Of a stretch of 64,000 nt of DNA, positions 11,116 through 33,000 are shown one piece after another (within the stretch, counting starts at the first letter, position 1; each line of letters opens with the position of its first letter). Source of the stretch: a virus. The translations under genes and the position numbers were made by a program. The stretch lies in the IMG/VR virus record IMGVR_UViG_3300008117_000001; one strand, written 5' to 3'. A model generated the notes under the pieces. The model saw only the letters and a program-made list of their open reading frames with translations. It did no database searches and was not told the origin of the DNA.

Positions 11116-11116
11116 A

Positions 11117-11759: not shown

Positions 11760-14700
11760 TTGATTAGAGATCCAGGGCCTATTCATAACTTAGGTTATAG
11801 CGTAACATCCAGAGATGTTCCTACAATGATAGACGAAGAAAGGGGCGATGCCCCTAATTCGTCTTTTATCTCAAAGGCCTTAAATAATCACCCTGTTTTA
11901 AGATTTGTATCTACGGCAGCCACTACCATGGCTTCAGCTTTTGTTTTGTCTAAGATAACAAAACAAGGTGGTCTAAAGCTAGCCAAAACAGTTCAAGACA
12001 GAGCGGATAGTGGAGCAAGCAGATTTGCTTCAAATATTGTTAATGTATTTCCTAAAATCAGAAGAGAATTCGACGAACTTTCTGGCGTTAGCCGAATGAT
12101 AGATGGGAATACTCCTGATCAAATAGATCCTTATTCAAGACTTGTTTTTGAAACCGCAGAAGGTAAATTAACTACCGGCGTCATTAAGCATACAGATAGA
12201 GGCTATCACTGGACTGCTGGAGAAATCAGCAAAAGTGGTAAGGGTATAGAATACGAGACTGCGGGAATATGGGGCTTCCGAGAAGAAGCTCAGTCCCGTT
12301 TGGTCTCTATGGCCCGTAGAATGCCCTATGAGCTGCCAGCAATGTATGTTGGCCAGAAAGCTATAGTTGATCCAATTTTTGGCGGTAGAGACGATTCTAA
12401 GGTCAAATGGTACAATCCTGTAGACGTAGTTACGGACTTCGTTAAGGACTCTACCATTAACCTAGTTACCATGATGATTCCAATGGAGGTTGGTGGCGCT
12501 GCCATTGGCAACGCAAGGTCATCCTTATCTAATTTTAGATATTCTATGTCAGACCTAGCTAGGTCTACCGGTACAACTGATTTAAAAACAAGATCTTCAA
12601 GGGCATTTGTCAATCTAGCCGACATGTTGTCAGAGGTTGGTCATGACCTGGCAGACATAACTCAAAAGGGTTTAAAGGTTTCTGCTCAAACTAGTGGAGC
12701 AATTAAAGCTGCAACCACAGAGTATAGTCAGCAAAGAGTTGACATTAATGCAATTCTTTCGCGAACAAGAAACTTAAGAGCAAAACAGATCTATGAGGAT
12801 TCTAAGGGCTCAAAATTAAAAAGAGCTAGAAACGTAGCAACGCAGTATGCGTTTGGCAATGACGCCAGTGGCAATTCTGGGTATTTAGATTTATTTCCGG
12901 GACTAAGAGGTGTTGGAAGTGCCGTAAGGCAGGGTATAAATCAATTCCGTAAAGTTGGCTACGGCTACGATGTAATAACGAGAGCTATTGATTTTGATGC
13001 AGCTGTGCAGAGATATGGCGCAGCTAATCCAAATGCTTTTAGAACAGAACTAAAGGGAATAGTCGGCAACCTTCAGGCGAACTCCTCTAATAGAATGACG
13101 ACTATGGCTAGCAAGATTGCTAGAACATTTGGTGGTCCGGCTGGATCAGATAACTTCTATGCATCAGAGTTTTATAAGGGAATAGAACAAACTGAGTATA
13201 AAAAAGTTTTATATAAATCCTTAATGGAAAGAACTGCAACTTCAGATAGAGATGAGTTTGCAAGAACAATAGCAAAATTTGTTGACGACATTGACGTTAG
13301 CAAAACTGCAATGGAGCCCTCTAGAAGAGTAACTATAGGCGAAACCAAAATACTACTCGATGGAGATGAGCCATTTGATGAAATCATAAATAGATTCAAG
13401 GGCACTCTTGCAAAAACTAGGGCCGATGAGTTCGTACAAAAAGTCGGAAATTCTGATGTACTAAAAGATTCTATTATCGACGCTAACAGACTTTTCACTG
13501 GCGCACAATTCCAGGCAGCATTAAAAGGAAAGGCAAACAAAGCTTATAAGGCATTCCAGGAACAAGGAATGGTTAAGGTAGCTGGAAAAGTCTTAAAAAC
13601 TAAAAAAGCAGATTTTGAAGATTTCCTAGATTTAGATAATCTTTCTTACGCACAAAAAGATTTCTTAGTTAAAAGATCAGCTCAAAGATTAGGCATGAGG
13701 CTAAAGACAGCTGATGGCAGAGATTTAACAAGAGGAGAATTAGGGGAGTCTTTAGGTAAGGTCGGCCTTAACATAAAAGATGCCGGTCAATTAAGAAGTT
13801 TTCTTGTTAGAGAAAAACAAATAAGTTCGGGAGTTTTTGCTAGTGGTTTTAACCTTCTTGGATTAAGAAGAATCACTGTTGATGAAGCAAATCAACGCGG
13901 AGTTTTTGCAAATGTAGACGATGAGACCAAGCGCGTTATAAATCAAATGTCTTCCAGCATGGTAAGGGCTGATCCAACGACAACCGCTGCTAGCGTTTCT
14001 GTTCTTCCAGATGTATTTATAACTAAGACTGGTAGTATTTTAGATGTTTCTGGAATAAGACAGTCTGCAAGAAATGTTGGAAACTTTTTAGCTAACGATT
14101 TAAGAATACCAGTTCTTGGATTTAATCCGGCAGATTTGGCGGCTAAGCAATCTTTTAATGAAATGTCCGGAAGGGCTCCGTTCCAGTTTATTCAAGGTAG
14201 AGTTTCTCAGCCATTTTTACAGGGCGCTGATAAGTCGGCTGATTTCTATTTGTTCTACAGCGGAGGAAGAACAAAAGGTAATGTTATGGCATTTAATTAT
14301 AATGTCATGGCCCAGCAATATACTTCTAGGACTTTAGATGGTACATTTAGACCTTTAGCTAAGAATAGCTCGCAATTGTTAACGAGGGCAGCAAGAAACG
14401 CTGCAGCGGAAAGAGATGCTGAGTCATTAAACTCTTTAAGTTATCAAGAAGGTACATTTAGAAGCAGATTCTTTTCTGGCCTATCAAGATTTGGAATGAC
14501 GCCAGAAAGAGAATTTAGGTTTAGAGAATTTTTTGATATTAACTATGATCAGCCAAACTCTGTATTTGGCTTCTTGTCTAGATTCTCTAGAAGAAATATT
14601 GATCCAGAAAATCCAAGATTCCTTGCACAAGTGATGACTGGCAAGGAAATCCCTACCAAAGCTGGTACAGCAAAAAGAAATATAGTAAAAAGCGCTGATG

Positions 14701-17700
14701 GAACTGTAGAAAAAATTAATGTAATCGATGTTGCCTCTGGCGAAGAAATGGTTTCAGAAAAAGCCTTATTAGAAGCTTTTGAAGGATTCAGAAGAAGAAC
14801 TCGTGCAGCTGGCTTTTCTCGTCGTGCAATGAAGCGAATTGAAGAAGCTGACCCAGCATTAGCTACTTATCATGGACAAAAAATTACCGATCTTCAAAAT
14901 GTTCAGGAAAAAATAGATTTTGCTAACGTCCTGCTTAGAGGCGTAGACAGAGATGCAAATATTCTTAGAAGACAGGGCATCGATCCTGTTGCGCTATATC
15001 AAAGCGGATCCAGGATCAATAAAGTATTAGAGGAAGCAGATCTGTTGTCTGGTTCTCAAATTCGTTCTGTTAGTCCAACAATTATTTCAAGAGAAGATGA
15101 ATTAACAAATGAAATGTTTAAGTTTCTAATTCAAAGAAATGAATTAGTTTCAAATAGCACTAGACAAACATTTGGTCAAAATTTTATTAAAATAAACCAA
15201 GCACTGACAAGCATGGCAAAAGAAATACCAGCTGGTGAACTAGCTGAAGCACAAGCTGCGGCCTTTGGTGCACTAACTAACCTTAACTCGGTAAGAGCAA
15301 ATAGATCTTTCTTAAAAGAGATTGAAGTTCAAAGAAGAGCGTTAGCAAACGTTATTGAATCTTTAGAGTCTGCTCCAGAATTGGCGCAACCATTTATTAG
15401 TGGTTCCATTGAACGAGTTGGGGAAATAGGAAGACTTGGTTTATTTAAAAAATTATTATATCCATCATTAAGTACAGCTTCTTTCAAAATATCTCATCTA
15501 GCAACAGACCCACTTGGTTCCGCAACTGGCCCCGGTGCTGACGTTTTACTAGTTCCTACTTTTGGTAGCGTATTTTCTAGAAATCCAATAGGCGCCCTCA
15601 AGAGCGTTGCTGGTATTAATACGTACAGTAGTCCAGAGAGTTATTCAAATTTATCAGCCGCAGTTTCTCATGGTGTTGAAAGATTAAACAAATACTTTGG
15701 AACAGTAGGCTTACAGCTAGACGTTAATCAGTATGGTTCGCCATTAGACTTGTTTGCTAGGGGCATGGTAGGCAAGAGGGTTTTGCCACTTTATGCTGGT
15801 GGCATGGCCTTTATGACTGCTGACAGAACAATTGGCGGGATGGTCAACGAAAAAGATGCAAGAGGAGAAAGAGTTTATTCTCCATTTTTTGTCGGAGCTG
15901 CCGCAAAAGCTGTTGGAGAAATTCACGCCCTAGGAGCTGGAGCTATGCCCGGCGGTATGAGCTACGAAGAAAAGAGAGAGCAGCTTTTTGAAGGAGAAGT
16001 TCCCATAAGACAGGGTCGTTTTTGGCCCTTGGGCAATACACCCTTTATGGGCGGAAAGATAATGTATTATAGGCCCAGTATTTATCGCAAGATTGAAACT
16101 GGCGCCATGTTTACATCTGACACCTATGGTTCGCCTATTGAAAGAGCTTTATTCTATACTGATATATCACCATTGCGTCCTTTAGATCCTTATCGTTTCG
16201 AAAGAAAACACTATGAAGATAGACCGTATCCTATTACTGGAGAATATTTTTCTGGTCCATTTGGTCCGCTGACTCCCGCCTTAAATGCTACTGTTGGAAG
16301 AGTACTAAAGCCACAAATAAAAATGCATGAGCAAGAGGTTTCTCAAGCATTATCAAATTATGCTCCGGCAGGACAATCTGGCGCATATGATGCTAGCGCT
16401 TATTTGCGACAAATTTCAATGCCTATGCTTCCTGGGCAGGCTCCGCAGCAACAGTTTGGTCAAGCGTCAATTGGCGGAGCTATGCAGGGAGCAGGACCAA
16501 TTATGTCTATGGGCATGTCTTCTGGCGGACCTGGTCCGGGTATGCAGGCATCATCAAACGCCGAGCTAGCAGGTAGAGCTGGAGCTTTGAATACAGCTAA
16601 ATATTCAACGATGCAAAACATAGGGCAGATAAATAGTCAGTATGCCCAAATGGCATATGGTCCGCCGAAAACTCCTGGTATGATGCCACCAAGAATAGTT
16701 GGTGCAGGATCGCCAATTTCTGTTGGTAATCCACAGGTTCAGATACAAGAATTTGGCTATAGAACACAGGAAGCCTTGGGTATATATGGTTTTGCTGGCG
16801 CAGCATTTAGGGAATCCTTTGGTTATGGTCAGGGTGACTTTGAGCCCCAAAGGGCAGTTCTTCAGTCTGCATCTAAAGCTTACGGAATGAGTAGACAGTT
16901 TTGGGACTATAACCTTGGAGGACTTGGTGACGTTCCGATGTTGGGTGGAAGGAACTTTGGTTCAATAGAATTTTCTGAAATAACTAGAAGATTTATACCA
17001 AAAGAAAGAACTGGAGTTGATTATCTTAATCCTATACAAAATACAATGGGACAACAGTATCCATTTTTACCAGGCCCAGAATATTACTTAGACTTTACTA
17101 GAGGAGATCCGTTCACTAAAGTCCAAGAAGGAGAATTGCGTTTGCCAGGAGTGGCATACGAAAGGCTAAATCAACTTCGTTCTGATGAAACTGGAAGATA
17201 TGGTTTATTAGATCAATTTAAGATCTTAGGAGATGTTGCGCCCTACTCTAAACAATATAGATATTTAGATAAAAAAATAGATAGTTATCTTAACGACCCT
17301 TCGGAAAAATTAGAGGCAGATAACATTAGAAATAGAGTAGCCTCTATACAGCAAAAAGAAAACTTCTCCGAATATAGTCATGTTGGTAAAACAGCAGCAG
17401 AGGCTGGAACAAATCCTTTAATTCATAATATATCTCGTGCAGCAGAATATATTGCGCATAGAGATACTTTTATAAATAGAAAGTTTATTAATAAACAAAC
17501 TGCGGTTGAGGATTGGGAAAGAAACAATGTTTATGGCGCAACTTTCCCAGAATGGCAAAGGCCTTTTGAAAGCTTTGTGGAGCCAATGATAAATAAAGCA
17601 GCAGACCGCAATCCAATAGCTGCTTCTGCAAGCTTGGCTGCTGCAGGCCTTTTTGCTGGCAGGACTCAGCCAGGTAAGTTGGTTATGTCTGGCTTGGGTG

Positions 17701-18455
17701 CAGTGACTGGACTAGCAGCTTCCGCCGGGGCAAATCTTCAGGAGGCAATAACTGGGGATAGATTTATTCCAACCGAAAGAAAGAAAGAACTAGCTCTTGA
17801 AGAGTATTCTGATATTTTAACTTATGTCAAAAATACAAGACTAGCCAATATGGCTGAAGCATCTGGTGATGCAGCGGCAGCTTTCCAATTTAGTTCTGCA
17901 GCAAAAAGAACAATGTATGGTGCGCCCATACAGGATATTGGCACTGGAAAATATGGAACAGATGTTGAATCTCTTTCTCTTGCTATTCCTAAAAGAAAAA
18001 GAGAACACTTTAAGGCAATGATAAATGCTCCAGAGCAAGATAGAGAAAGAATACTTTCAACAGCTGGCAGATTAGAAAGAAGAATATACGAAGCTGCATG
18101 GGGTATGCAGGTGGAAAAGCGCCCAGAATTAACAGACTATTTCAGCAGACACGAGCTGCCAGATGAAGGCTGGGAAGGGTGGCATCCCAATACTAATATG
18201 GATTCTGTTAAAATTAAAATAGGCCAACACATGGGTCTTGAAATGTCTCAAATGGGTTACTATCCACAACAGATAAGAGAAGCAAATCTTGCTAATCCAA
18301 GCTATCCTCGGTTCGGTTACTCTTCGGACTCCAATGCAGACGTAGCATATAGATTGCGATCTTTAATGAATGGCATGGGGGTTACTGGTTCCGTAACGCC
18401 TGTGATGAATCCATTTGGTGGTCAACAAGTTGACATAAGTGCAGGAGTTAGATAA
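11760..18455 (+). CDS. Tape-measure-like protein (2231 aa)
   Basis: Very long, helical, A/G/R-rich gene directly after the chaperones, with several hydrophobic segments. TTG start with AGGA upstream (start uncertain). Confidence 0.65.
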   Translation: MIRDPGPIHNLGYSVTSRDVPTMIDEERGDAPNSSFISKALNNHPVLRFVSTAATTMASAFVLSKITKQGGLKLAKTVQDRADSGASRFASNIVNVFPKIRREFDELSGVSRMIDGNTPDQIDPYSRLVFETAEGKLTTGVIKHTDRGYHWTAGEISKSGKGIEYETAGIWGFREEAQSRLVSMARRMPYELPAMYVGQKAIVDPIFGGRDDSKVKWYNPVDVVTDFVKDSTINLVTMMIPMEVGGAAIGNARSSLSNFRYSMSDLARSTGTTDLKTRSSRAFVNLADMLSEVGHDLADITQKGLKVSAQTSGAIKAATTEYSQQRVDINAILSRTRNLRAKQIYEDSKGSKLKRARNVATQYAFGNDASGNSGYLDLFPGLRGVGSAVRQGINQFRKVGYGYDVITRAIDFDAAVQRYGAANPNAFRTELKGIVGNLQANSSNRMTTMASKIARTFGGPAGSDNFYASEFYKGIEQTEYKKVLYKSLMERTATSDRDEFARTIAKFVDDIDVSKTAMEPSRRVTIGETKILLDGDEPFDEIINRFKGTLAKTRADEFVQKVGNSDVLKDSIIDANRLFTGAQFQAALKGKANKAYKAFQEQGMVKVAGKVLKTKKADFEDFLDLDNLSYAQKDFLVKRSAQRLGMRLKTADGRDLTRGELGESLGKVGLNIKDAGQLRSFLVREKQISSGVFASGFNLLGLRRITVDEANQRGVFANVDDETKRVINQMSSSMVRADPTTTAASVSVLPDVFITKTGSILDVSGIRQSARNVGNFLANDLRIPVLGFNPADLAAKQSFNEMSGRAPFQFIQGRVSQPFLQGADKSADFYLFYSGGRTKGNVMAFNYNVMAQQYTSRTLDGTFRPLAKNSSQLLTRAARNAAAERDAESLNSLSYQEGTFRSRFFSGLSRFGMTPEREFRFREFFDINYDQPNSVFGFLSRFSRRNIDPENPRFLAQVMTGKEIPTKAGTAKRNIVKSADGTVEKINVIDVASGEEMVSEKALLEAFEGFRRRTRAAGFSRRAMKRIEEADPALATYHGQKITDLQNVQEKIDFANVLLRGVDRDANILRRQGIDPVALYQSGSRINKVLEEADLLSGSQIRSVSPTIISREDELTNEMFKFLIQRNELVSNSTRQTFGQNFIKINQALTSMAKEIPAGELAEAQAAAFGALTNLNSVRANRSFLKEIEVQRRALANVIESLESAPELAQPFISGSIERVGEIGRLGLFKKLLYPSLSTASFKISHLATDPLGSATGPGADVLLVPTFGSVFSRNPIGALKSVAGINTYSSPESYSNLSAAVSHGVERLNKYFGTVGLQLDVNQYGSPLDLFARGMVGKRVLPLYAGGMAFMTADRTIGGMVNEKDARGERVYSPFFVGAAAKAVGEIHALGAGAMPGGMSYEEKREQLFEGEVPIRQGRFWPLGNTPFMGGKIMYYRPSIYRKIETGAMFTSDTYGSPIERALFYTDISPLRPLDPYRFERKHYEDRPYPITGEYFSGPFGPLTPALNATVGRVLKPQIKMHEQEVSQALSNYAPAGQSGAYDASAYLRQISMPMLPGQAPQQQFGQASIGGAMQGAGPIMSMGMSSGGPGPGMQASSNAELAGRAGALNTAKYSTMQNIGQINSQYAQMAYGPPKTPGMMPPRIVGAGSPISVGNPQVQIQEFGYRTQEALGIYGFAGAAFRESFGYGQGDFEPQRAVLQSASKAYGMSRQFWDYNLGGLGDVPMLGGRNFGSIEFSEITRRFIPKERTGVDYLNPIQNTMGQQYPFLPGPEYYLDFTRGDPFTKVQEGELRLPGVAYERLNQLRSDETGRYGLLDQFKILGDVAPYSKQYRYLDKKIDSYLNDPSEKLEADNIRNRVASIQQKENFSEYSHVGKTAAEAGTNPLIHNISRAAEYIAHRDTFINRKFINKQTAVEDWERNNVYGATFPEWQRPFESFVEPMINKAADRNPIAASASLAAAGLFAGRTQPGKLVMSGLGAVTGLAASAGANLQEAITGDRFIPTERKKELALEEYSDILTYVKNTRLANMAEASGDAAAAFQFSSAAKRTMYGAPIQDIGTGKYGTDVESLSLAIPKRKREHFKAMINAPEQDRERILSTAGRLERRIYEAAWGMQVEKRPELTDYFSRHELPDEGWEGWHPNTNMDSVKIKIGQHMGLEMSQMGYYPQQIREANLANPSYPRFGYSSDSNADVAYRLRSLMNGMGVTGSVTPVMNPFGGQQVDISAGVR

Positions 18456-18457
18456 AT

Positions 18458-21400
18458 ATGATGGGAAAAATAGCATCCTTTTTACAAGGGAGACGAGAAC
18501 AGATTCCGGAATATGAATCTATTAACGATTATTTAGCCTCCTATTTGTCTCCTCTTTCTCCAGAAAAACAAGTTAGAGCCGCCAGAAGAATTTTAGGTAA
18601 AATTCCTACTGGACAGAAAAAGCTAATAGAACCATTTGTTGATCCTTCTGATAATATTTTAAAGTATAGATCAGCTTATGATGATCCGGATCCTGCAATT
18701 GGCAGAAAAGTTTTTGATACCGTTGATGATGCTATTCAGTATTTTTCTTCTCTACAGATAACAGAAGTTTATAGAATATCTAAACAAGATGTTCCAGTTG
18801 TTTATAGAGGCTATGCGGAAGTTTTGAAGGATATAGAAAGAAATGCTATTGCACAAAATCTATTTGGAATAGAAGGTTTAGAAATGAACATTGCTATTCA
18901 TAAAGGGCAAATGGATTCCCAGCAGGGCAATGAGGCGCTAAAGGCTTTCTTTAAAACGCAAAAAGAAAAAGGATATGGTCTACTCCTGCCTACTGATGAG
19001 GGGGGTGTAGCAATGAATCTTGTTGCAACAATTGCAGGAAAAAGACAGGTTTTAAATCTGGAGCAAACTTTAGAGGTAATGCAATCAGCGAATGTTTCCA
19101 TCATAGACCCAGATGTTTTAGAAGAAGCAATGAGATCTGGTAACAAAAAACTCGCCTCCTTGATTCAAAAGTTGGACAAGAGATTGCGCGGAGTGTTGTC
19201 ACCAAGAGAAATTTCTATTGCTGGCGACGCAATGAGAAGGGTCCTTGATGAAGTAGGTAAGCCAGGGATGTCATTTGCTGACTCAATTCTTAATACTGAT
19301 CCGGTTTATGAAGCATTAGGATTGGCTCTAGATGTAGATACATTAAAAAATGTTTCTACAATGAAAAATGCCGAAAAAGCCGCAGATGCTGCACAAAGAA
19401 TAAAAGATTCCTGGATGATCAAAGGAACTGATAGATCTAAAGAGTTTTACAAAACAATATTAGATGAAGTTATCCAAGGCCAAAGCGGTCCTTCAAAAAA
19501 GTTGGCTGGAAAAGAAAGTCAAATATATGCAGACGTTACAAGCTACCTCAAGATCGCAATGCAAGATGCGATAGACAGTGGAGATGTTGATATTACGGTA
19601 GGCAAATATGGTACAGATGTTCTAAAGAAAAAATTAGGCTCGTTAAAAGAAACTCTTGAGAAAAAAGCAGGAGGCAGCGAAGCTGCTCTTAAAGCAATAG
19701 ATCAAAAATTCAGTATAATTGATATTCTTCTGGATGAAATTGAAAAAGGATCAGATGGCTCAATGTTGATCAATACTCCGTATACTAAAGCTATTCAAAG
19801 AGGCTATCAAGCTGAATTAGATGAGCTAGATAAGCGTTACGCACAAGCTAAAGATAGACTAGAAAAAGAAGATATTCTTTTAAAGAAAAGAGAAATTCAA
19901 AAATCGATGAGCCAATTAGATGAATCAAAAGGTTTATCTCAAATAACTGTTCGTGGCAACGTCGTATTTGATCAGGGTGATGCAACTAGGCCTGCAAGAA
20001 TATTTTCCCTAAAAGGCGCAGCAATGGATGTTGAATTTACCGGAAGGTATACCAAGTATTCAATTGTTGCACCTAAAGCCACAACAAAGAGGGAAACAAG
20101 AATATCTGGAGTTAGAGATATACTAAATATAAGCGGAACTGGGGAGTCCAAGGGTGCAGTCTACGCAGACCCGATGCTTGATGCATTTCACTCTGCAGTA
20201 TTCGGTTCAACGCAATCGCAAAAGTTGGGCAGAGAATATTCACAGCAAGTACAAAAAGAATTAAACGCAATGTTGAAGGCAAATAGAATTGACGAAAGTA
20301 GCACCTTCTTCCAGTCTTTGCAAAGAGCTGCTAATGAAATGTCTAGCGATCTATTAGAAACTCAACAATATTCACAGCTTATGCACAGGACGTTGGCTCA
20401 AGAAATATTGGCAATACACAAGAGTGGAGTTCCGTTGGATCAGCATCCTAGGGCCATGAATAGAATTTTAGACTTTGCTCAGAAAGAATTTTTTAAACTA
20501 AAGAAAGGAATTCCCCTACCAGTAATGCCCGATGTTTACAGATTTGCCTTAAATGCAGAGTCAACTCAGGTTGGAATTTCTGGTGGAAGAATGTTCCTAG
20601 ATATGGCCGATTCTAATATAGCCATGGATGAAGGATTTAGTATAAATACTACTAGGGTAAGATTTTCTAATCACAATTTATTGATGACCGAAAGAGACGT
20701 AATAAGATTTCACCATGCACTTGGTGGGTTCGACCTTGACGACAAGGGTCTACCAGTACTTGGTACATATATGTCTAACGGTAAAAGGCGTTTGGCCATG
20801 GCAATGGCTCGTCAGCCTACGGGCGCAGGAGAAATGGTAGGATTTGTTGAATTTAGAGACGTAGAAAGCTATAGAGAATTATTTGGTCATAATAAAGACT
20901 TCCTTAAGACATTGGATCAAATGATTTTAGACGAAGAAGAAAAGTTGGCATACCTTCAGGGTTCTGGTGGCTCTCCGGCATTACAGCGATTGAATATATT
21001 AAAAGAAAATTTAACAGGCAAACTTACAGCTGAAGACATGACTCGAATTGATGAGTCAGGTATATTAGATCAGTTGGAAGAAACAATAATAGATGTTAGA
21101 GATAGACTGTATGGTGGCAAAGCTAGAACTTTTAATAGATCATATTTTGAAGCTCTCGGCGTATTAAAGCAAGGCGAAAGTACAGTCAATTTTTTTGCAG
21201 GATCAAGGCTTGTTGATTTTGCTGGAGTTGATCCAGGTTTAGCTTCTTTAGGTTTTCAAAAGTTAAAAACTGAAGTAATGACTCTAAATCTTGAAAATGA
21301 CGTCTTTACAGCCTTAGAGCATTTGATGACAGATCAGCAAAAAACTCAACTAGGGGCCATTAGGAATCAAATTGAGCAACTAAAAGAACCAGCATATGCT

Positions 21401-23542
21401 GGTAGAGCTATACCTGGTTCATTGTACGACGATCCTTCACAAGTAGCTGCGCTGGAAGAGGCTCAAACAAATTTATCTAAAGCTTCAAAAGACTTTTATA
21501 AAACACTGGATGGATTTGGTTTAGATAAAGACAAAAGAGCTATTGCAATGAACAAATATTATTTGGAAGCAATGGAAAAAGCAGCCACTGAAAATGGAAA
21601 TAATCTTGGTAGACACGTCAACAGAGCCACCGTAATTGCAGATGGCTTGAATCAATTCGAAAAAGCATTTGGATCCAATCAAGCAATAAACGACGCTTTG
21701 CGCAGTAAGGGTTATGTTATTGGTCTCCCCGCATCAGAAACTGCTGTTGACATGACTCAGACATTTACCTCTGGAAGACTAACGTTAAAAGCTGAAGCCG
21801 AAACAGCAGCAGACCTACGATATGGTATGGATATTTTTAAGAGAATGTATGGAAATAACTTTGACCTAGAAGAGCATGGGGCAGACAGCGTTAGTAGATA
21901 TGGAAAAATGTTTGGTTACCTGCAAAATAGAGAAGGAAAAACCTTTACTCTTGATAAGGCCTTAATAGATTTTGGCAAACTTAATACAGAAGACTTAAGA
22001 TCCTTTGCAGAGTCTTACATAGCTGGTGCTGAAGAAAGGATTGCAGAAGGTATAGGAATAGAAGAAGATCTAAGTACCATAAAAGCGCTTTTCAATAAGG
22101 GAGACGCACCTGGTAAGCGCCAGTTAATAGATGCGTTGACGCAAACTGGTATTATTGGAAGGGGAAACTTATCTGAGACAATTTCTGTGGCAAAAGAAGC
22201 ATTTGACTATTTAAACGCAACAAGGAAAAGATTTTCCGATAACCTAAATGAACTAAGAGATACTTTAACTGCTGGCATGGGCAAAAATGCTACGGAGGCT
22301 AGAGAGTCAGCAAGGGCTATATTGGATGCAAATAAAGAAATTTTTAAAGAGTTAAATGATTCAACTACCGCATATAGAGAGGCTCAAAAAATTCTTAACT
22401 CTGGGATAGAAGAGGGTAATTTTATCAGTGCTGCTAGAAGAGAAGAATTGTCGATAGGTTTTGAAGGCGCTAGGCTAAGAGCGGAAATACTAAAAACTGA
22501 ATTGGGTGATAATTTACTTAGTGGCATTAATGAGGTTAGATCGCAAAGGCCGTTGACCGGATTTAATTTACTTAATGCGCTTCAATTAGAGGCTTTAGAT
22601 AGGGGGATGAGCCCATATGTTTTTGAAGGACTACAGGATCTAACCGAAAATTCTAATGAAGAATTTGCAAACTTCTTTGCTAGAGTAAATATAGCTAAAA
22701 GGCAAAAAGCAGCTTATATGAAAGCTACTTCTAACTTACAGGTTCAGTCTATGGTGGACAATTTTTTTGCCACCACTTCTTCAATGAGAGATCTACTACT
22801 AGGAGATATTGTTGGAGGTACTCTTTTGGATTTATCACAATATGGTGATATTACTAGCGTTTTTTCTGCTAGTGGCATCAACATTGATGCTACCCAATTA
22901 AGGGCAGCCCTCAATGAAGGGGTAATGGATACTACAGATCAAAATATTGCAACCATAGCAAATGCGATAAGGTCTAGAGCCTTGTACGAAACGCAGATTT
23001 TAGATCCAGCAGTAGATGACTTTTTGAACGGGCAAATATCTGCAGATAAAGTAGTCGGCCCTAAAGATAGACCAACTGGTATAGTGCGAGATGTTTTAAG
23101 AGAGCTGGGGGATCAATCTCCTTCAAATGTAAATCCATCAAAATTTAAACGTTTAGACATGGATTATTTAACTGAACAGTTCTCTAAGCCATCTGTCAAA
23201 AAAGCTGCCATTGGAGCTGGCTTGTTAATAGCTGGAAGCTTTTTATATCAGAACAAAAAAGATAGAACAGCAGAAGATGCAGCTGGTCCACCATTGCTTC
23301 CAGGTGGATCAGCGTACGAAGAAGGGTATCCTACCCCAAATATATCCATGCCCCAAGTTGCCGGAGGGGGCTATTCTTCTGGAATGAGTTATAAAGTTTC
23401 TCTATATGGTTCCAGGGAAGAGGTAGAAAGATTTCAGCAAGCAGCTTCAGGAGTTACTAATGGATCAGTTAACAGTACTATGTATAACAGGATTCCCAGT
23501 GTAACGTCTGATCCATATCAGCAGCTCGCTAGTTCATTTTAA
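18458..23542 (+). CDS. Candidate virion-associated single-subunit two-barrel RNA polymerase (non-canonical catalytic loop)
   Basis: Ordered motifs: SDGSMLIN (D433), QITVRG...SLKGAA (Q495, R499, K519), IVAPKATTK (K544), ALGGFDLDDKG (D759, D761, D762), ARQPT (R785), NNLGRHVNRATVIAD (about 1049-1062), ETAVD (D1098); C-terminal hydrophobic helix. Motif reading by eye only. Confidence 0.6.
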   Translation: MMGKIASFLQGRREQIPEYESINDYLASYLSPLSPEKQVRAARRILGKIPTGQKKLIEPFVDPSDNILKYRSAYDDPDPAIGRKVFDTVDDAIQYFSSLQITEVYRISKQDVPVVYRGYAEVLKDIERNAIAQNLFGIEGLEMNIAIHKGQMDSQQGNEALKAFFKTQKEKGYGLLLPTDEGGVAMNLVATIAGKRQVLNLEQTLEVMQSANVSIIDPDVLEEAMRSGNKKLASLIQKLDKRLRGVLSPREISIAGDAMRRVLDEVGKPGMSFADSILNTDPVYEALGLALDVDTLKNVSTMKNAEKAADAAQRIKDSWMIKGTDRSKEFYKTILDEVIQGQSGPSKKLAGKESQIYADVTSYLKIAMQDAIDSGDVDITVGKYGTDVLKKKLGSLKETLEKKAGGSEAALKAIDQKFSIIDILLDEIEKGSDGSMLINTPYTKAIQRGYQAELDELDKRYAQAKDRLEKEDILLKKREIQKSMSQLDESKGLSQITVRGNVVFDQGDATRPARIFSLKGAAMDVEFTGRYTKYSIVAPKATTKRETRISGVRDILNISGTGESKGAVYADPMLDAFHSAVFGSTQSQKLGREYSQQVQKELNAMLKANRIDESSTFFQSLQRAANEMSSDLLETQQYSQLMHRTLAQEILAIHKSGVPLDQHPRAMNRILDFAQKEFFKLKKGIPLPVMPDVYRFALNAESTQVGISGGRMFLDMADSNIAMDEGFSINTTRVRFSNHNLLMTERDVIRFHHALGGFDLDDKGLPVLGTYMSNGKRRLAMAMARQPTGAGEMVGFVEFRDVESYRELFGHNKDFLKTLDQMILDEEEKLAYLQGSGGSPALQRLNILKENLTGKLTAEDMTRIDESGILDQLEETIIDVRDRLYGGKARTFNRSYFEALGVLKQGESTVNFFAGSRLVDFAGVDPGLASLGFQKLKTEVMTLNLENDVFTALEHLMTDQQKTQLGAIRNQIEQLKEPAYAGRAIPGSLYDDPSQVAALEEAQTNLSKASKDFYKTLDGFGLDKDKRAIAMNKYYLEAMEKAATENGNNLGRHVNRATVIADGLNQFEKAFGSNQAINDALRSKGYVIGLPASETAVDMTQTFTSGRLTLKAEAETAADLRYGMDIFKRMYGNNFDLEEHGADSVSRYGKMFGYLQNREGKTFTLDKALIDFGKLNTEDLRSFAESYIAGAEERIAEGIGIEEDLSTIKALFNKGDAPGKRQLIDALTQTGIIGRGNLSETISVAKEAFDYLNATRKRFSDNLNELRDTLTAGMGKNATEARESARAILDANKEIFKELNDSTTAYREAQKILNSGIEEGNFISAARREELSIGFEGARLRAEILKTELGDNLLSGINEVRSQRPLTGFNLLNALQLEALDRGMSPYVFEGLQDLTENSNEEFANFFARVNIAKRQKAAYMKATSNLQVQSMVDNFFATTSSMRDLLLGDIVGGTLLDLSQYGDITSVFSASGINIDATQLRAALNEGVMDTTDQNIATIANAIRSRALYETQILDPAVDDFLNGQISADKVVGPKDRPTGIVRDVLRELGDQSPSNVNPSKFKRLDMDYLTEQFSKPSVKKAAIGAGLLIAGSFLYQNKKDRTAEDAAGPPLLPGGSAYEEGYPTPNISMPQVAGGGYSSGMSYKVSLYGSREEVERFQQAASGVTNGSVNSTMYNRIPSVTSDPYQQLASSF

Positions 23543-23552: not shown

Positions 23553-23999
23553 ATGATATTAAGTGTTAAAGATCAAAATAAAACTTTAGCCTCCGCTGCA
23601 AAACAGCCAAAAGACACATCTCACAGAAGCATTACAGCAAACAAGTATGCTGCAAAGATATCTTCTAGTAAAAGTCCTTCTAAAAATGTAGTGTCTGAGT
23701 CTCGTCAAAAAATTCAGGCAACAGGTCAGTCAGATAAGGTCCGAGGTTCTTTTGAAGGTTTAGAAAATTCTTCTCCAGCTCATATCATCATGAATGAAAG
23801 TGGATATAGCGGAAAAAGGCATCAGAAAGCTAGATATTCTAAAAATATTAATACAAAATTAGGTGGCAATTTTAACTTTAATTCTTTTACAAAAGAAACA
23901 AAAAGTAGTATAATAGATAACTATAGTTCTTCTACGATGAAGGATTCTTCAAGTGAAAGATTATCTAAAATTATTAAAAATAATATGGCGTTTGTCTAA
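23553..23999 (+). CDS. Small basic K/S-rich hypothetical protein
   Basis: AAGG RBS; 148 aa with very many K, S and N and few hydrophobic residues; no family recognised. Confidence 0.5.
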   Translation: MILSVKDQNKTLASAAKQPKDTSHRSITANKYAAKISSSKSPSKNVVSESRQKIQATGQSDKVRGSFEGLENSSPAHIIMNESGYSGKRHQKARYSKNINTKLGGNFNFNSFTKETKSSIIDNYSSSTMKDSSSERLSKIIKNNMAFV

Positions 24000-24007: not shown

Positions 24008-27000
24008 ATGTCTAATGTTGAGCAGTCAGAAAATGAAGGAGAACAGAATCTAAACTCTTCTGATCCATTGTCATATGACTATAGCCAAAAGGCTTTTATG
24101 AATATGATGATGATTGGCCCGCTTGGCTTGACTGGCAGTATTGATGACATTACAGGTAATCCACTTGAGGCAATCGAAAGGTTCTTCTCGATAACAAGAC
24201 CAGATGTTATTCCAGATTTAAAAAATTTTGATGATCCAGGTGGAGCAGAGGATTTTAAATCCGATACAGACAATTATCAAAAAAGAATTGAAGCAACCAG
24301 TAGGGTATTTACTTCTGGCGGAACATTATCTTCTCTTGTTGACGATGGCGCTCTCTTAATTAATTTATATAAGAGGCTAGAGTCAACAGGGCTACTGTAT
24401 CTTGCATCATTTGCTTATGAAATAAGTGAATTTGGCAAAAAAAGGCTTCAAAATGTTTACATGACCCAAAAGTCATTGGATTACCATGTAGATCCAGCTG
24501 TAGATACCCAATGGTTAACTCTTTTGAGTCAAGTAGTTTACAGTCTGCAAGCAGATCCAATATCTTTTTCTATTATTAATCATTACCTTCCAGGGTTAAT
24601 GACTTTCGTTTTCGATGCACTAGCTGTCACTGGCGACTATTCTAATGCCGGTAAAGGTGGGGGAAGAGAAGATACTCTCAATAGAGAAGAAGACGCGATT
24701 GAAGAGTTAGAGAAAGCTTTTGGTGTAGCGCCAAATGGTGAACCAATATTCACAATGGCGTTCAGAATTAATGGTGGGAATACTTCGGCAAGAATTCGTA
24801 AGGCTATAGAAGATTTTCCATTTAGAGCAAATATACCTCCTAAAAAGCCCGATATATTTCATCTTCGTTTAGGCGCAGCAAACTTTTATGTTCCGCCTAT
24901 TTCTGTTACAGTTAATTCGGCTTTCAAAACTGGATCACTTACTGGTGGAGCAATCAGGCAAAGAAATACACCCAAATATAATGCAGGATATAAAGAGACT
25001 TCAATTTCTCTAAGACTATTTTTTCCAAACTATCAAGAAATATGGGGCATGCACATAAGTGATGCCTCGTCAATAAATTTGAAAGAAAATTTTAAAATAG
25101 ACTTTAAGAGTAGTGGTGATTCAGAAGAAAAAATAGATAAGTTTCTTTCTTCTTTGCGAGGTCTAATTGCAGCTTTTAAATATTCACCTATACTCCCGAT
25201 AAAAAATGATTATATAAATTCTGTTCATGGAATTACCGCTGTAGCCCTATCTTCTATGTCTATTTCAACAGTGCCTAATTATCCTTTTTCTTTAATGGTT
25301 GATCTTGAGTTACTTAGCTACAATCATAAGCCATTTCTACCTATGGTTAAAGATTTTAACCAAGCCATTCACTGGGGTAAATATAGGCAGTATATGGGCA
25401 AGGCTGCTGGCGCAATGCACAAGTATGCCAATGAGTCTTTCTTGTTGAAGACTTCAGATAATAGAAATTCTGAAGAGAGCGAAGATAATACTGGCTTGAT
25501 TCGCAGTGGGGATTACATATATCAGACTAGCCCTTATGGTTCTTCAGTGACAAGCGAATCGGCAATTGTTGACTCTTCTTTGACTGATGATACAGTTGAA
25601 TTACTTAATACTTATGAGAATGATGTTTTGTATACAAATATAGTTTCTCAGTGGAGAGATGGAAGTAACTTAACTTTTTATACTCCAGCTGAAACTCAGA
25701 CAAAAATGTTCTTGCCAGACACTACTTCTTTTAGAAGTGAACAAGAAAAAATTCTAGATCAACAAAGTTATGGCCTATGGAATGGCTTATTAGCAAAATT
25801 TGGAATCGAGATTTCTCCTAATACGCCAGCAATTAAAGATATAAACCAAGTTAAGTCTCTTTCTTTGGAGCCAACATTTGCTTCTTCTACGGCAACATTT
25901 GTTCGTCAAGCAGTAGACATTATGACCGCTGGAGTTAGTCAATCTGACTACAGGGCTGGTATCTATAGGTATAAGATGCAATCCTTTATTTCCAGCAACT
26001 TAATTAAATTAAGCGCTGAAGAAAAGGAATGGCTACTAAAATACCTTAGTCCAGATGAGATGCCTTACGATGCAGATTACTTCTCGCAATATCCAACAGA
26101 GGGATCATACATTTTAAATGATCCAGTTTTTAATGATGAAAATGATAATGTTAGCTTAAACTTCATTAAAAGAAGTATATGGAATTCTGTTTTTCAATCA
26201 GGCAATATCATAGATACTTTAGTCATTGAAGAAGTTGAAAGAAGAAAAGTTTTAGGTGTCGAAATAGCTGTTCCTGACGAAGAAAAGGTGCGACAGCAAG
26301 TAACTGATGCATTCATGCTTTCCTTGTATAATCGTTTCTTTTCAGACGGTTATGTGCAGAATCTTATGGAGGCTAAGCGTTTAAGAGAGGGAGATTACCA
26401 CTTCCAGGAATGGGAAGTTCCCATGAATCGGGTTGATTTAGATCCTAAAAAAGCTATAGTCAACGGCGTTAGCATAAGTCTTGGCAACAATCTTGCAAAG
26501 CTACAGGTTCAAATGCAGGATGAGCCGACCTATCAATATATAGGCGGAAAAGATTCTTATGTTAATATATCAATGACTGTTTTTGGCGAAAGAGAGCTTT
26601 ATAAGATTAGAGCAATCTTTGATCACATTAACTCTTTAGCCAGACTTGAGCACTCAACTGGTGTTATTGGTTTCTTGGGGATGAAAAATATTATTACTGC
26701 ATTGTGCGGAATTAAATATGTTATTCCTTTGAATTTTAAAGTAGATACTATACCTAATTATCCGCACGTATACAATGTGCAATTGAGCCTTGTCGACTTT
26801 GATATATTCCAGCAGCAAAGAGAAAAGCTTTCATCAAAACAGCAAAGTGATTTTATTGAACATTTTGGTTCAAAGAGAAATCCATTTTTAAGAATTAAGC
26901 AGTTGTGGGGAGCGTTTAATGCATATCCCGATATGCCACTGGAGGTTCGCGATAAAAATGATGAAGTCGTTGGAAACTTAGATCCAGATTTTTATTTTAG

Positions 27001-30000
27001 AAGCTTTGAAATGTTCGATAAAGATGTTATTAATAACTTCATTTATCAACCCGATATAACAAAAGAATTCAAATTTGATTACAGTGATGATTGGGCAAAG
27101 CTCGGGGATGCTCGCGCTATAGAGATCAGAAAAAATCAAGTTAAAAATAGAATTACAGATTTCCTTAGACGCTACGCCTATAGGGATGTTGGAAGCGAAC
27201 CATTTGCCGCAGCTCAAAGAGCTAGCAACAATCAGACATTAATAAATGAAATTATTAGCTACGTTAACAGTAGCGGTATAAGTGTTCATAATTTTGTTTC
27301 TTTATTTCAAGAAGTTATACAAACTCAAACTTCTGAATTTGAAACTTCAGAAAAACAAGGATTATTAACTGACTACATCTTTATTGCAGCACAATCCACA
27401 GAGGATAGTCCAGTATTTGAAGAAATTGTTGGAGCAGGCTATTCTGTTGGTAATCTAAAATATACAAGCGCAGAAACTTTAAATTTAATTAAAGAAGTTT
27501 TATCAGATTCACACTTGGCAAACGAAACAGAAGTTAGCTTTAATCCAGATGAAGTAGATTTCCATAAAGTGATATATATGATTCCGGCAACAAATCCGCA
27601 AGAATCTGGATCAGAATCAGAAGTACCTGCAATGATGCAGTCTGCATTGGGGACCCATTTTGGTTATATCAATAAAGATAATGGAAGATTCTATCTAACA
27701 GTCGATGGTTCAAATGTTCATATAGATGACAACGGGAATAAGAGACTAGCAGAAAATCATATAGAAGATACACAAACTCCAGATAGGGGTTGCACAAATA
27801 CGCTTACTGGAGTTGAGGGCGTACAATCTCTGGATAAATATCAAAAAGCTTATGATGGATCTTTTGGTGGCCACATACAGAAGATGATGAATGATGTCCA
27901 GTATCGAGACATTTCTGGAAGAATGATTAGAGCATTTCCTACTTATATGTTGTGGCTAATTGACGAAGGTGGCTTTTTTGCCGGAGTTAAGCTGTTTGAC
28001 AATTTTTATGGAATGCAATCTATAGTAGATTTTTCTGTTGTATCTTCAGAAGATCTTCTAGGGGACACGTTAATATTTAGAGTGTCCAACATGTATTCAA
28101 AGTTGACTACTCGTCCTTCTACAGAAATATTTAATTCTAGAGACAATCAACCAAGCGATGCACCAATAGATTTTACTCAAGGCATTGAATCTATCTTGGA
28201 TAGAACTTTAAATATAGCTAAAAATATTGTTTCTGGAATGAGAAACGATTATGTAATTGACATTAACAATATTAGACTAAAGCCTGGTGTTCGTGTTCAT
28301 CTAAGAGTCGGATATGGAGCAAATCCAAATTCTCTACAAACAGTTTTCAATGGCGTCATAACAAATGTTGAGCAAGGAGAAATCGTAACAGTTACTGCGC
28401 AGTCTGACGCTATTGAGCTTGGCGCAATAGTTAACTCTACAAACAAAAAAGGTGACACTGGAAAAATAGATGGTGGCATAGATACAGGAATGTATCTTTC
28501 TGAGCCTAGAGATCTTATGGTGAGACTTCTTTCTATGGGTGCGTCAAGATTTAGAGAAGCTTTTGCTAGAGCCACAAATGGAACTGTTTTTTCTGAAAAT
28601 AGATTTGGAATTCGTCATTTTGGTTCAACGTTATATGAACCATTAAGCGAATCTGAAAGAGCAAGAGCTGATGGAATTAGAAATGTAGTCGCTAGTGTTT
28701 ACTCTAACCTTGGACAAGGCGATGTAGGTGGTGCTGCTAATGCCGCATCATTTAAATTAGCTACAAATGTTTTCACAAACAACCCTGTTAGTACATTTTT
28801 CGGAGATGGAAGAATTATGACAAGCATGGGGCAACTCATGTCAAACTTCTGTGCCGAAGTAGACTTGGAAATATTTAAGAGAAATATTTATCCTGGAAAT
28901 GGAACAGGTTTTGCCCAATTCCTTGGTGGAGATATAGATGATGGGTGGCTTACTGCGTCCTCTCTTGTGGAACAGGATGACAAGAAATTAAAGGGACAAG
29001 GGTACCTTGAAAGAGGTGTCGATAGATCATGGAATCGACTTATAGTTGAAGCTCAAAATGAGTCTGTTTCAGCGAGGACGGCCATAGGAACAATGACAGC
29101 TGGCAACAAGCTCGTAGCTGCTGAAGGTAGAGCTAACGCTACAAAAAATATACTTATGGGTGGCTTAGCTGGTTCTATCGGATTGATACCTGGAGTAAGT
29201 TTTGCTGCTGGAGCAGGAATTTCTGGGGGAGGTCTTTTTGGAATTCTCAGAGGAAGAGGCGGAACAAACTTCTTTAGGTTAATGGGAATTATCGCACCAA
29301 ATGCTGACGACGACCTACCTGGTTTTGATGAGGTTTCATTTAGAGCGCAAACATACATGAGAACTGTTTGGGATCTTTTCCAAGTTTGTGCCCGATTGCT
29401 TCCAAACTATATTGTTGCAATTAGACCATTTGAAGATAGATCTACAATTTTTTATGGTAAACCGCACTGGCTTTATACTTCTGGAGTTGTTCCTGTAACT
29501 ACAGGATTTCCTAGTACAGAGAGGGGATCTGAATTAAGTTTGCCAGGCTATCCAAAGTATCGTTCGCCGGACGAAGACATCGAAAATATCATGAATAACA
29601 TCAACAAATCCAGTAACACATTGGCTGACTATGAGGCGTTCAAGAGGTCTAATGAACTTTCTGATACAATGGCCAGTCTTGCGAGTGATCAGTTGAATTC
29701 CGAAGGTGTCTATAAGCCTACGGCATTTTTGAAAGAAAAAATAATTAACTTTAACTCACCGTTAGCTGCAACATTTTCTGAAACACAGCAAGATGGTTCA
29801 ACTAAAATAGTTGCAAAACTACCAACGGTTGTTGGATTAACAAGAGTTGGTTTCCACCTTCCTGTTGGAGATCCCACAACAACAATAGCTCAGGCAGGCG
29901 ATAATCACGCCCAATTAGACAATCTTCCACCAAGATTTAGGTACCCATTCTATACTATAAATGAAACAGTAATATTAGACACGACATCATATACCGTTAG

Positions 30001-33000
30001 AGACGGTGGGGTCTTCGAGAACGCTGCAAGTCACTTCAAGGATATTGGAAAATCTGGAAGAAAGTTTTTGGCAAACGAAGGCGAAGTGCCCATGGACGCC
30101 GAAGAATTTGAGGGATTTGTCAATGAGGCTATGGCAGAAGACAGACGATCTTTCGGTGGTGCAACATTTATGGCAAATATGTTCACCCTACTTCAGTATG
30201 AAAGCAAATTCATTTTAAATAATGAACTAACGCTAGTGCCGTCTTCTGGAATATTAGAATTAGATCGTCCTTTAGGCTTCTCAACTTTTATAGACAATAT
30301 GGTTGATGTGGATGGTTTGTCATTTATTGGCGGAGCAACCTCAACATATGTAAGAATGCCCTTACCATCAGTTTACGCAAATAGACCTAGCATATCTCTT
30401 GATCAAGCTGCTCTTTCTCAGTATTCTGTAACTTCTTCTGAAGCGCAAAGAAATGCAGATGATTATTCTTTCGAGTATGAATTGGCAAACCAAATATCAT
30501 ATGAAGAATGGGGTTCACCTGGTGACCTACCGGCTTCTCAACAAACAGCTGCTGAAGCAGAACAATTCTACATAGCGATGAGATGGCCATATAATCCTGG
30601 TAGTGATGATATCAATGTTTCTGACGAGGCCATACAAAAGTTTAAAGAAAAATATAATTTTACAGATTTGTATGGAACAGCACAAGATTATAAAAATAGA
30701 AAAGTCTTAGTAGTTAGCCCTAGAACTAATAGAGCTGTTGTATGCGCTCCGGCATACTTCCTTTGGGGCGAAGATGATGATGACACAGCAGCTGTTGTTT
30801 CACCCGACGCCGCCTGGTATTTGGGCAACTTTGTATCTAAAGACCTAAGTTTTAAATTGTCAGCTGATGAAGAGGAAACAAGTATATTAGATCAGCTTCC
30901 GTCATGGATTAACACTACACTAAGCGCAGTACAGGCTGTTGGTGATTTTAAAAATAATTTGATAGGTTACGCCGGTAAAGTTTTAAGCTTTACCAGCGGT
31001 GCCGGCATTATAGGAAGTAAGATAGCTAACAGATTAGGTGTATCTATTTTTGGCAACGAAGATGAGCTAAATTACGAAAACGAAAGTGGCTTATCTATAA
31101 ACCCGCAACCAGTAGAGTGTCTCTTTGCCTTTGTTCCAGATGATGTTCCTGTAGGCGTTGTATCTTCCTCTGCAGCTCCTATCAAAAAGTTTAAAGCAAA
31201 AGACGGCCCCTCAATGGCTGATAGCATGATTCTTGGATTTGGAAATTATACAATGACAGAAGATGGCCAACTTGCTGAATTAACAGCAAGGAAAGCTAAT
31301 GCTCAAGATCTTAGAAATGAACTAGGTGGAGGTATTAGTTCAAGATTTGTAATTTATGATAAAGATTTAGTGGATCCACCAAATATATTCTCAGAATGGG
31401 TTCCAGTAAATGCTGAGATCTCTTCTAGTAGATTTGATTTTGGCGGTAATGCGTTAGCCGTACCAGATGGAAGAGATAAACCATTCTCTGGTTATTTTAA
31501 TACTTTGTTAGAAATATCTAGCTTTAGTGATGTTTCAAATATTGATCAGTCTGTTCTTGATGGCGAAGTTGCCGACATGATTGGTGATAGCTCTTTGTCT
31601 AGACAGTATTTGTATTCTATTTTGGATGAAGAATTATCAACAACTGGAGATGTAGATTCCGCCAAAGGAAGAGCTGCATTCTTAAGTGTGTATGATCCAT
31701 TGGATTCTGTTGGAGTAGAAGCTAGATCTTATTATGATGAGAATTTTGACCCTAATGTTTCGGTCATAGCTGGTGATGGAAGAAATCTTAGTGAAGCAAA
31801 TGACATATGGGATCAATTTAGATTTGGATATCACACATACGATAGCGTTAAGGGAATATTTGCAAAAGTTTACGGAATGGATCCAGAGTCCATTGATCCT
31901 TTCCCAGAAGAGTTTTCTAGAATATTAGGATCTTCTATTGAGGATAGTTTTAAAAACTTTGAGGATTCGAACATTCCAATTGCTGGACTGGCTGATACCG
32001 AAAATACAGCTGTCGATGAATTAGCAATCCTGCTGGGCGCTGACTATTTTAATATTCCAAACAATCCACAACTAGGTGGGCAAGGCGTTCCTATAACTAA
32101 TGCAATTGAAAGAAGAAAAGCAGTAGAGTTTATAAGAAAAAATTATATAGATTTAATAGCCGCAGAAAACGAGTCAGACGCCGGAATCATTCAATACTTT
32201 AACTCAACAATTGCTGATGCACTTAATGGTATTAGAGAAAACTTTTTTGACTCTCCAGTAATTAATACAATTCTTGAATACGCGTTAGATAATTCCAAAA
32301 AACCAGAAGAAGCCATTGCTCTAAATGAAAAAATTAAAACTCCAAAACAGCTTTTCCTTTTAATGGTTGGTTTATTTAGGCAAAAGCTTTGGAACTCAGC
32401 CTATGGCAGAGCATGGTTGGTTTTGAAGCCTAACCGTAAAAGAGGTTTAATTACGAGTGGAGGCGGAGGATCTGACGGTCAGTGGTCATTCAAACCTATC
32501 GATAGGATATTTGAGGCTTTCATAAATCCATATAGCCAGTACGCTAAGGATGACAATAAGTTCCTTCAATTATTAGTTTCAACAAAATCTGAGGGAACTG
32601 GTGCTACGACATTTATTTCTGGAACACTTGAAGATATTGGTAATTTCTACGATAGAAATATCGGACCAATTATGACCGCAATAGGTGACGGTCTTTCTGG
32701 TCTTCTTGGAATGTTCAAGCTTTCCATGATGCAAATGGGTTATGCCATCTCAGAGGTTGGCAATTTTAGTAAGCAAGCACATATTTTAAACAAAGTTCTG
32801 AATGACTCTATTTATTATTCATTAGGAAGAGAGGGCACCTTATTAAGGGCTGTTGATAATCCGTTTACTCGCGAATATGGCGAACCCGTATTGGAAATCA
32901 GACAGCCCTTCCAAAGAATCCATTATCTAAGTTCATTTTCTCATATTATATCAAATCAGATTCAAGAGAATTTGAATGGCGTGTCAACCGTAGTTACCGC

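Follow-up and report, generated by a model that had tools for sequence, protein, structure and literature searches.

A candidate two-barrel RNA polymerase encoded among the tail genes of an uncultured contractile-tailed phage

To our knowledge, phage virion RNA polymerases (RNAPs) are known in a few systems only, namely N4, the phiKZ-like jumbo phages, the crAss-like phages and P23-45. Past discoveries of such enzymes have reshaped ideas on how phages escape from host transcription and on RNA polymerase evolution. Whether a contractile tail may deliver such an enzyme is the question raised by a 64,000-nucleotide stretch of viral DNA (IMG/VR record IMGVR_UViG_3300008117_000001, hereafter the window), which is one long plus-strand structural gene block of a contractile-tailed phage. 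The open reading frame (ORF) at 18458..23542 (+) encodes a protein of 1,694 residues, here named T, whose homologs are unnamed. A preliminary description, made from the DNA letters, proposed that T is a single-subunit two-barrel RNAP that is injected from the virion. Our analysis indicates that T is most likely a very divergent RNAP of the cellular ("two-barrel") type from an uncultured phage of ~200 kb. We assign a probability of about 0.55 to the whole chain, in which T is a two-barrel polymerase that is packaged, injected and starts transcription. The proposed homology stands as likely on the strength of the motifs, the structural model, the structural matches and the loop of a paralog, and we regard the two-barrel fold as very probable. 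RNA polymerase activity, judged from the sequence and the model, is probable to a lesser degree, and virion delivery, which the gene position suggests, has somewhat better than even odds.

The preliminary description had picked out seven peptides, each of which lies in the translated ORF exactly where it had been placed. The first, SDGSMLIN (19751..19774, residues 432-439), holds a D-G...N motif on a strand that precedes a long helical hairpin. It is followed by QITVRG...SLKGAA (19940-20023, residues 495-522) and IVAPKATTK (20063-20089, residues 536-544), by the candidate catalytic loop ALGGFDLDDKG (20717..20749, residues 754-764), and by ARQPT (20807..20821, residues 784-788), which carries the R785-Q-P-T motif 23 residues past the Asp loop. 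The last two are NNLGRHVNRATVIAD (21599..21643, residues 1048-1062), with the motif N-N-L-G-R-H-V-N-R, and SETAVDMTQT (21734..21763, residues 1093-1102), with the motif E-T-A-V-D. These were compared in an alignment, A2, that covers the core of the protein (residues 401-1150) in 40 diverse loci on viral contigs (residue number = A2 position + 400), in which the homologs are 19-84% identical to the window protein and the mean column identity is 27%. Residues K519, K544, V568, D571, G657, R695, L755, G756, F758, D759, L760, D761, D762 and K763 are invariant in A2, as are R785, Q786, P787, E792, G1051, N1055, R1056 and D1098; D433, G434, N439, T497 and R499 reach a conservation of at least 90%. 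All seven motifs thus fall on columns that are either invariant or conserved to at least 90% down to 19% identity, which argues that the series did not arise by chance. The conservation among homologs on which the proposal had been staked was therefore found, and, as judged from the alignment, each motif is a selected block.

In the two-barrel superfamily, a pair of double-psi beta-barrel domains builds one active site, and in single-subunit members a connector links the pair within one chain. The hallmark of the superfamily is three Asp residues that bind Mg2+ and that lie in a loop of the beta-prime-like barrel with the pattern DxDxD, usually DxDGD (PMC7824862; PMC10770324). A second feature, two basic residues contributed by the beta-like barrel, has its counterpart in T in K519 and K544, the Lys pair that had been predicted and that is invariant in all 40 sequences. 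The acidic loop had been set beside the known DxDGD, and here a correction is needed: the loop of T reads D-L-D-D (DxDD), not DxDGD or DxDxD.

The meaning of this loop is suggested by two paralogs of T in related phage genomes. N1 is a non-structural paralog of ~860 residues with an HGG-x-D-x-DD loop (L070:274-2853 (-) in record G002; L071 in G003). The third paralog, N2, has an invariant canonical W-D-Q-D-G-D loop (L079:46-2592 (+) in G004; an ORF of L078 in G005). N1 and N2 are related to each other with an hhalign probability of 99.7 (E 1e-26, 532 columns), and in that alignment the D-x-D-D of N1 falls on the invariant D-x-D-G-D of N2 with a one-residue gap. The profile of the T barrels (A3) matched those of N1 (A4; P 2.9e-4, 241 columns) and N2 (A5; P 1.7e-4, 144 columns), and the profile of the T core (A2) matched both as well (N1, P 2.1e-3, 246 columns; N2, P 3.1e-4, 163 columns), whereas reversed-profile controls gave P 0.4-0.9. 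As far as profile comparison can tell, T is therefore more distant from N1 and N2 but significantly related to them.

The residues that are brought together by these alignments are those of the motifs. K519, K544 and D571 of T align with K238, K260 and D285 of N1, whose two Lys are invariant, and K519 and K544 align with the invariant K223 and K246 of N2. The GGFDLDD of T aligns with GGxDxDD in the N1 loop, and RQPT..E with RSPNG.GE; the sequence R-S-P-N-G occupies the same relative place in N1 and N2 as RQPT does in T. Farther downstream, the counterparts of N-N-L-G-R-H-V-N-R are GNVGGFVN in N1 and NPGxGxxxN in N2, and those of ETAVD are ETAID and NDIID, respectively. Because N2 has the canonical DxDGD, the DLDD of T reads as DxDGD minus the Gly.

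Seven related records reach a completeness of at least 80%; N1 was found in every one of them, and N2 in five, ~10 kb from N1. The two records closest to the window (G002 and G003) have T and N1 without N2, and it is on these close relatives that the presence of N1 in the window's own genome rests. The N1 family has at least 230 relatives, all unnamed, and N1 is more than 50% identical across lineages where T is down to about 25%. Some members of the N2 family (1,041-1,068 residues) are fusions with Pfam PF08719 (NADAR); for one of these, one source gives the name "ribA/ribD-fused uncharacterized protein".

AlphaFold (AF2) models of the T core and of residues 488-820 (predicted local distance difference test, pLDDT, 65.7 and 72.9, respectively) give the same layout. 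The first beta domain, the putative beta-subunit-like "Lys barrel" (residues ~495-572; 19940..20173), has predicted strands at 496-505, 514-522, 543-545, 555-559 and 567-569, and both K519 and K544 are located on strands; D571 is its third invariant residue. A helical connector of ~105 residues (20174..20491), with four model helices at 585-677, leads to the second beta domain, the putative beta-prime-like "Asp barrel" (residues ~679-800; 20492..20857). The latter is composed of three strands, two short helices, the GGFDLDD acidic loop and three more strands, and it includes the invariant R695 and the nearly invariant R735. For these two beta domains, we tentatively infer a double-psi topology. 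The two barrels of QDE-1 and of phi14:2 gp66 are linked by a connector of ~140 residues (10.1101/2020.03.07.982082).

A structure comparison had been proposed as a check, and its outcome was mixed: two beta domains were found, with matches to P74-26 gp62, QDE-1, RDR2 and P23-45 gp96, but the Z-value of each RNAP match lies below the caution line of the tool. The best structural match was P74-26 gp62, a phage DNA-dependent RNAP of the non-virion kind. QDE-1 was matched with Z 4.8 over 221 aligned residues (model 1-291 versus 728-1026), maize RDR2 with Z 4.5 over 209, and P23-45 gp96 with Z 3.9 and 3.6. Among the matches listed, only these four proteins span both beta domains, and the others cover the helical connector region alone. 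The ranking carries weight because it brings up four separate single-subunit two-barrel RNAP families and nothing else that spans both domains. A Foldseek search of BFVD matched three uncharacterized Caudovirales proteins, 1141, 851 and 861 residues long, over 467-737 columns (E 1.9e-7, 2.4e-7 and 2e-4, respectively); their sizes fit N2 and N1, although identity with these could not be confirmed by sequence. In language-model features, 19 of the 30 nearest ESM Atlas clusters of N1 carry the Pfam family PF05183 of RNA-dependent RNA polymerases (RdRPs), with a score of 0.94.

Several observations weigh against this interpretation. Neither sequence nor profile comparison linked T, N1 or N2 significantly to an RNAP that has been characterized by experiment. 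Their hhalign profiles gave no significant match to phi14:2 gp66 or to P23-45 gp64 and gp96; YonO, used as a single sequence or as a seven-sequence profile from isolate phages, gave P 0.6-0.7 for T and 0.035 for N1; the PF05183 hidden Markov model did not match any of the three (five related phage records, with fragment scans to E 10; gathering score not reached); and profiles of sequences in the Protein Data Bank (PDB) gave no significant match. The three invariant Asp residues of T are spaced D-L-D-D, which departs from the literal DxDxD signature, and the R-x-P of T, N1 and N2 follows the loop, whereas it precedes the loop in beta-prime, the RdRPs and YonO. The low Z-values belong here too, as does a Foldseek search of the PDB with the T domain model, which returned no RNAP in the top 1000. 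The ESM Atlas was blank for T, both by features and by shape (template-modelling score <0.3), and model confidence falls below pLDDT 50 across the downstream region that holds the G1051/N1055/R1056 block. A structure search with a 750-residue model of the T core was dominated by helical-hairpin matches. Finally, tblastn against 50,697 isolate phage records found neither T nor N1, so that no cultured phage among them has the T gene. The missing profile link is nevertheless expected because, outside the Asp loop, many two-barrel families have no significant similarity to one another (PMC10770324). The proposed membership of T in the superfamily thus rests on the fold ranking and the motifs.

How does T compare with the enzymes to which it would be related? 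The closest parallel is Thermus phage P23-45, in which gp96 is the virion RNAP and gp64 the non-virion RNAP (PMC10770324). Like the candidate T, this is a single-chain two-barrel enzyme coded in the tail module, with a non-virion paralog elsewhere in the genome, and the proposed route of delivery, the tail lumen, is the same. P23-45 is, however, a siphovirus whose RNAP forms the N-terminal part of a 5,002-residue tape measure and has a canonical DFDGD loop (PMC10770324), whereas T is a separate gene of a contractile-tailed phage, with a DLDD loop and without detectable sequence similarity. QDE-1 and the eukaryotic RdRPs (PF05183; RDR2) share with T the order of Lys barrel, helical connector and Asp barrel and give the longest structural alignments (209-300 residues), but T differs from them in the absence of Gly from the loop, in the R-x-P behind it and in the lack of a match to the Pfam model. 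YonO of the Bacillus prophage SPbeta is a single-subunit phage two-barrel RNAP, as proposed for T, and is not a tail-module gene. Locally, the G-F-D-L-D-(gap)-D-K of T aligns over Q-F-D-N-D-G-D-K of YonO and F-R-V-S-N-H over L-R-S-P-H-L, but the overall alignment is not significant. YonO-like enzymes have been reported in relatives of the 0305phi8-36 group (PMC7824862). The giant gp66 of the crAss-like phage phi14:2 is a proven virion-packaged two-barrel RNAP (10.1101/2020.03.07.982082), where T is a candidate. Its loop, DFDID, has a residue other than Gly at the fourth position, as in T, but keeps the DxDxD spacing. Both families are unrecognizable by sequence, and hhalign found no similarity between the two; gp66 is a cargo protein of a podovirus-like phage.

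The preliminary description had also placed T as a separate gene in a contractile-tail module, and this was borne out. The order of tail tube, a gene designated w333, two chaperone-position genes, a gene for a 2,231-residue protein, T, a 148-residue gene and a gene for a 3,706-residue protein was kept in 11 of 11 diverse loci. The labels given to the neighbours of T, tape measure and baseplate hub, are uncertain: the tape measure is identified by position and length only, and the downstream protein matches an "endolysin" PHROG rather than a named hub. The tape-measure candidate (w2231; 11760..18455, +) lies directly behind the chaperone-position genes and has a constant length (2,192-2,234 residues in the 11 loci, versus 1,550-1,757 for T), a combination that T lacks. 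Within the block, T evolves fastest, with 24-35% identity versus 40-62% for its neighbours in the same loci, and this might reflect exposure of the protein to host defences.

The nearest isolates are Moorella phage MTATph1 and the Bacillus phage 0305phi8-36-like jumbo myoviruses, which are 30-34% identical in the sheath and w2231. The C-terminal third of w2231 (residues ~1295-2210) shares 34% identity with ORF145 of 0305phi8-36 and resembles that of its relatives too; among isolates, nothing matches the N-terminal 1,300 residues. In 0305phi8-36, the slot between ORF145 and ORF147 that is equivalent to that of T is occupied by ORF146, a "hypothetical tape measure protein", and the record annotation states that the products of ORF145 and ORF146 were detected in virions by mass spectrometry. 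No homology to T and no DxD(x)D motif was found in ORF146, and no domain is shared between T and the upstream 2,231-residue protein.

The conserved place of T in the tail block suggests that the protein is delivered with the virion. Scans of five near-complete relatives found no genes for beta-prime (PF00623) or sigma70 (PF04542), while positive controls were detected; a scan for a T7-like RNAP (PF00940) was empty, but its control was equally silent, and the result is therefore uninformative. A second, non-virion polymerase candidate, N1, is present in each of the seven records mentioned above, and N1 is likely the main (non-virion) polymerase of these phages. Taken together, the synteny, the C-terminal features of T described below, the absence of beta-prime and sigma70 and the presence of N1 and N2 fit a virion-borne enzyme that starts transcription, as in P23-45.

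One can envision how such an enzyme would work. Residues ~495-572 would form a beta-like barrel that provides K519 and K544, with the connector of ~105 residues next to it, and residues ~679-800 a beta-prime-like barrel, in which the loop G-G-F-D759-L-D761-D762-K, a putative Gly-less variant of DxDGD, would supply three carboxylates for Mg2+. The blocks around G1051/N1055/R1056 and D1098 might be helical elements that close the active site. T would be made late, together with the tail, because its gene always lies between the gene in the tape-measure position and that of the giant tail lysin. Three parts of the protein, namely the variable helical C-terminal half, a hydrophobic helix and the conserved C-terminal domain, could then retain it in the tail lumen or at it. 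On contraction, T would be expelled with the DNA and would transcribe the first phage genes. Later transcription would fall to the non-structural paralog N1, and in other lineages also to N2, in a division of labour like that of gp96 and gp64 in P23-45. Metal binding, RNA synthesis, packaging, injection and this division are all suggested by sequence, model and gene position.

The C-terminal features just named, and the N-terminal region, lie outside the putative barrels. Residues 1-400 (18458..19657) are conserved within the family, with K238, K241, R242, S248, D281 and D310 nearly invariant in a 19-sequence alignment (A1), and this region had no match in Pfam or PHROG. The variable, mostly helical C-terminal half (residues ~1150-1580; 21905..23197) is the site of the length differences within the family in A1. 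Near its end lies a short, Lys-flanked hydrophobic helix, AAIGAGLLIAGSFLYQ (residues 1583-1598; 23204..23251), which stays below 1.6 in a strict 19-residue Kyte-Doolittle test and is thus membrane-helix-like rather than a proven transmembrane segment. The C-terminal domain of ~90 residues (GPPLLPGGSAYE ... NSTMYNRIP ... DPYQ..ASSF; 23279..23539) is strongly conserved, with many invariant columns at 1610-1687 in A1, and served as a search pattern for more loci.

Alternatively, T itself might be the tape measure, or a ruler of the tail lumen, with an embedded polymerase module, that is, a fusion like P23-45 gp96 in a myovirus. T does occupy the slot of the virion-detected ORF146 with its tape-measure annotation, it has a long helical C-terminal half with a hydrophobic helix and a conserved C-terminus, and the BFVD search included weak matches to tape-measure fragments (E 0.04-0.4), next to others to crAss fragments (E 0.3-0.4). 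The usual position of a tape measure is directly after the tail chaperone genes. It is the 2,231-residue protein, constant in length, that follows the chaperone-like genes directly, while T varies in length and lacks homology to ORF146, which itself is without the motif; we thus consider a tape-measure role for T unlikely, though worth keeping in mind. Another scenario is that T is a two-barrel enzyme of some other reaction (primase-like, RNA-templated, or a PolD-like DNA polymerase), or a late polymerase that is not packaged. The superfamily includes archaeal PolD (PMC7824862) and QDE-1, which is described as an RdRP with dual template use (PMC9508822). The best-covered structural matches, QDE-1 and RDR2 with 221 and 209 aligned residues, are RdRPs; moreover, a DxDD loop could alter specificity, and packaging is deduced from the gene position. 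We think that this scenario is improbable, as the top structural match is a DNA-dependent RNAP, the near-complete relatives have no other recognizable transcription enzyme, and a tail-module gene with non-structural paralogs is the known arrangement of virion and non-virion RNAPs (PMC10770324).

A structural tail or ejection protein without polymerase activity, in which the motifs and fold matches are coincidental or the remains of a decayed enzyme, would account for the departure from DxDxD, for links to characterized RNAPs that all stay below conventional significance, and for the rapid evolution of T. Invariant K, D, R and G residues at 19% identity, in blocks common to N1 and N2, would be unexpected for a decayed or purely structural protein, however, and only two-barrel RNAPs were matched across both beta domains, so that we regard this explanation as very improbable. 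A peptidoglycan-cleaving double-psi beta-barrel domain (RlpA/MltA-like) was considered and rejected; none of the searches turned up that fold or family, and the existence of non-structural paralogs speaks against it. We therefore favour the two-barrel RNAP, and T is likely a paralog within an unannotated clade of Gly-less DxDD polymerases that has taken up a permanent place in the tail core of a lineage of contractile-tailed phages.

The T family is large. We found 43 close matches and 229 clusters at 50% identity in metagenomic protein sets, all unnamed or "hypothetical" and mostly 1,540-1,760 residues long, as well as 63 T loci in IMG/VR on viral contigs of 25-216 kb. No match for T was obtained in Pfam or PHROGs, or among PDB sequences by phmmer and profile searches. 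Several viral contigs carry T as a pair of adjacent ORFs (L060:8711-13967; L047:8857-13690; also L057, L032, L027, L033 and L037), for example of 1,356 and 417 residues in the complete record G005 and of 660 and 955 in L057. The break points vary by locus; true splits, frameshifts and errors of assembly are all conceivable causes. Both G005 and G024 are complete relatives that carry terminal repeats.

The other features noted in the window are on the plus strand where a strand is given. The tail sheath (6680-7942, +) is followed by two tail tube paralogs (7971-8633 and 8662-9504, +), which match phrog_9206, labelled "major head protein", and are taken as tube by position; the 0305phi8-36 record shows the same clash, with the product "major head protein" and the note "tail tube". 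The two small genes in the tail-chaperone position (10558..11746, +) are syntenic with ORF143/144 of 0305phi8-36, "hypothetical tail chaperonin", and have PHROG matches of unknown function only. Three giant ORFs (2,231, 1,694 and 3,706 residues) lie between tube and baseplate. The conserved 148-residue gene that always comes next after T (23553..23999, +) has no Pfam or PHROG match. The tail-associated giant protein of 3,706 residues (w3706; 24008..35128, +) matches phrog_20474, "endolysin" (E 4e-120), in five stretches and phrog_8809 too, and is syntenic with the 1,903-residue ORF147 of 0305phi8-36; it has hydrophobic segments at residues 1715-1733 and 3594-3614. A baseplate wedge gene is located at 38859-40028 (+), a 914-residue protein with a PG_binding_1 domain at its start at 47880-50624, and a class II (B12-dependent) ribonucleotide reductase at 61174-63231, at the right end of the window.

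What would these phages be? We tentatively envision, at less than even odds, a widespread, uncultured lineage of contractile-tailed phages of ~180-215 kb, distant kin of 0305phi8-36, that is self-sufficient in transcription through a private two-barrel clade with a DxDD loop and the R-x-P behind it, and that injects T, a paralog turned into a fast-evolving protein of the tail lumen, to start transcription. If this is true, T would be the first case of a myovirus tail that delivers a virion RNAP and, after P23-45, the second in which a two-barrel RNAP was coupled independently to the tail core, and the delivery of a polymerase through the tail lumen would not be peculiar to one thermophilic siphovirus. 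T and N1 would represent an unannotated and abundant polymerase family (229 clusters for T and over 230 relatives for N1), and in their loop enzymology would gain a naturally occurring DxDD form of the universal DxDGD metal loop. Three large families of "hypothetical protein" in freshwater and other viromes would thereby gain a function.

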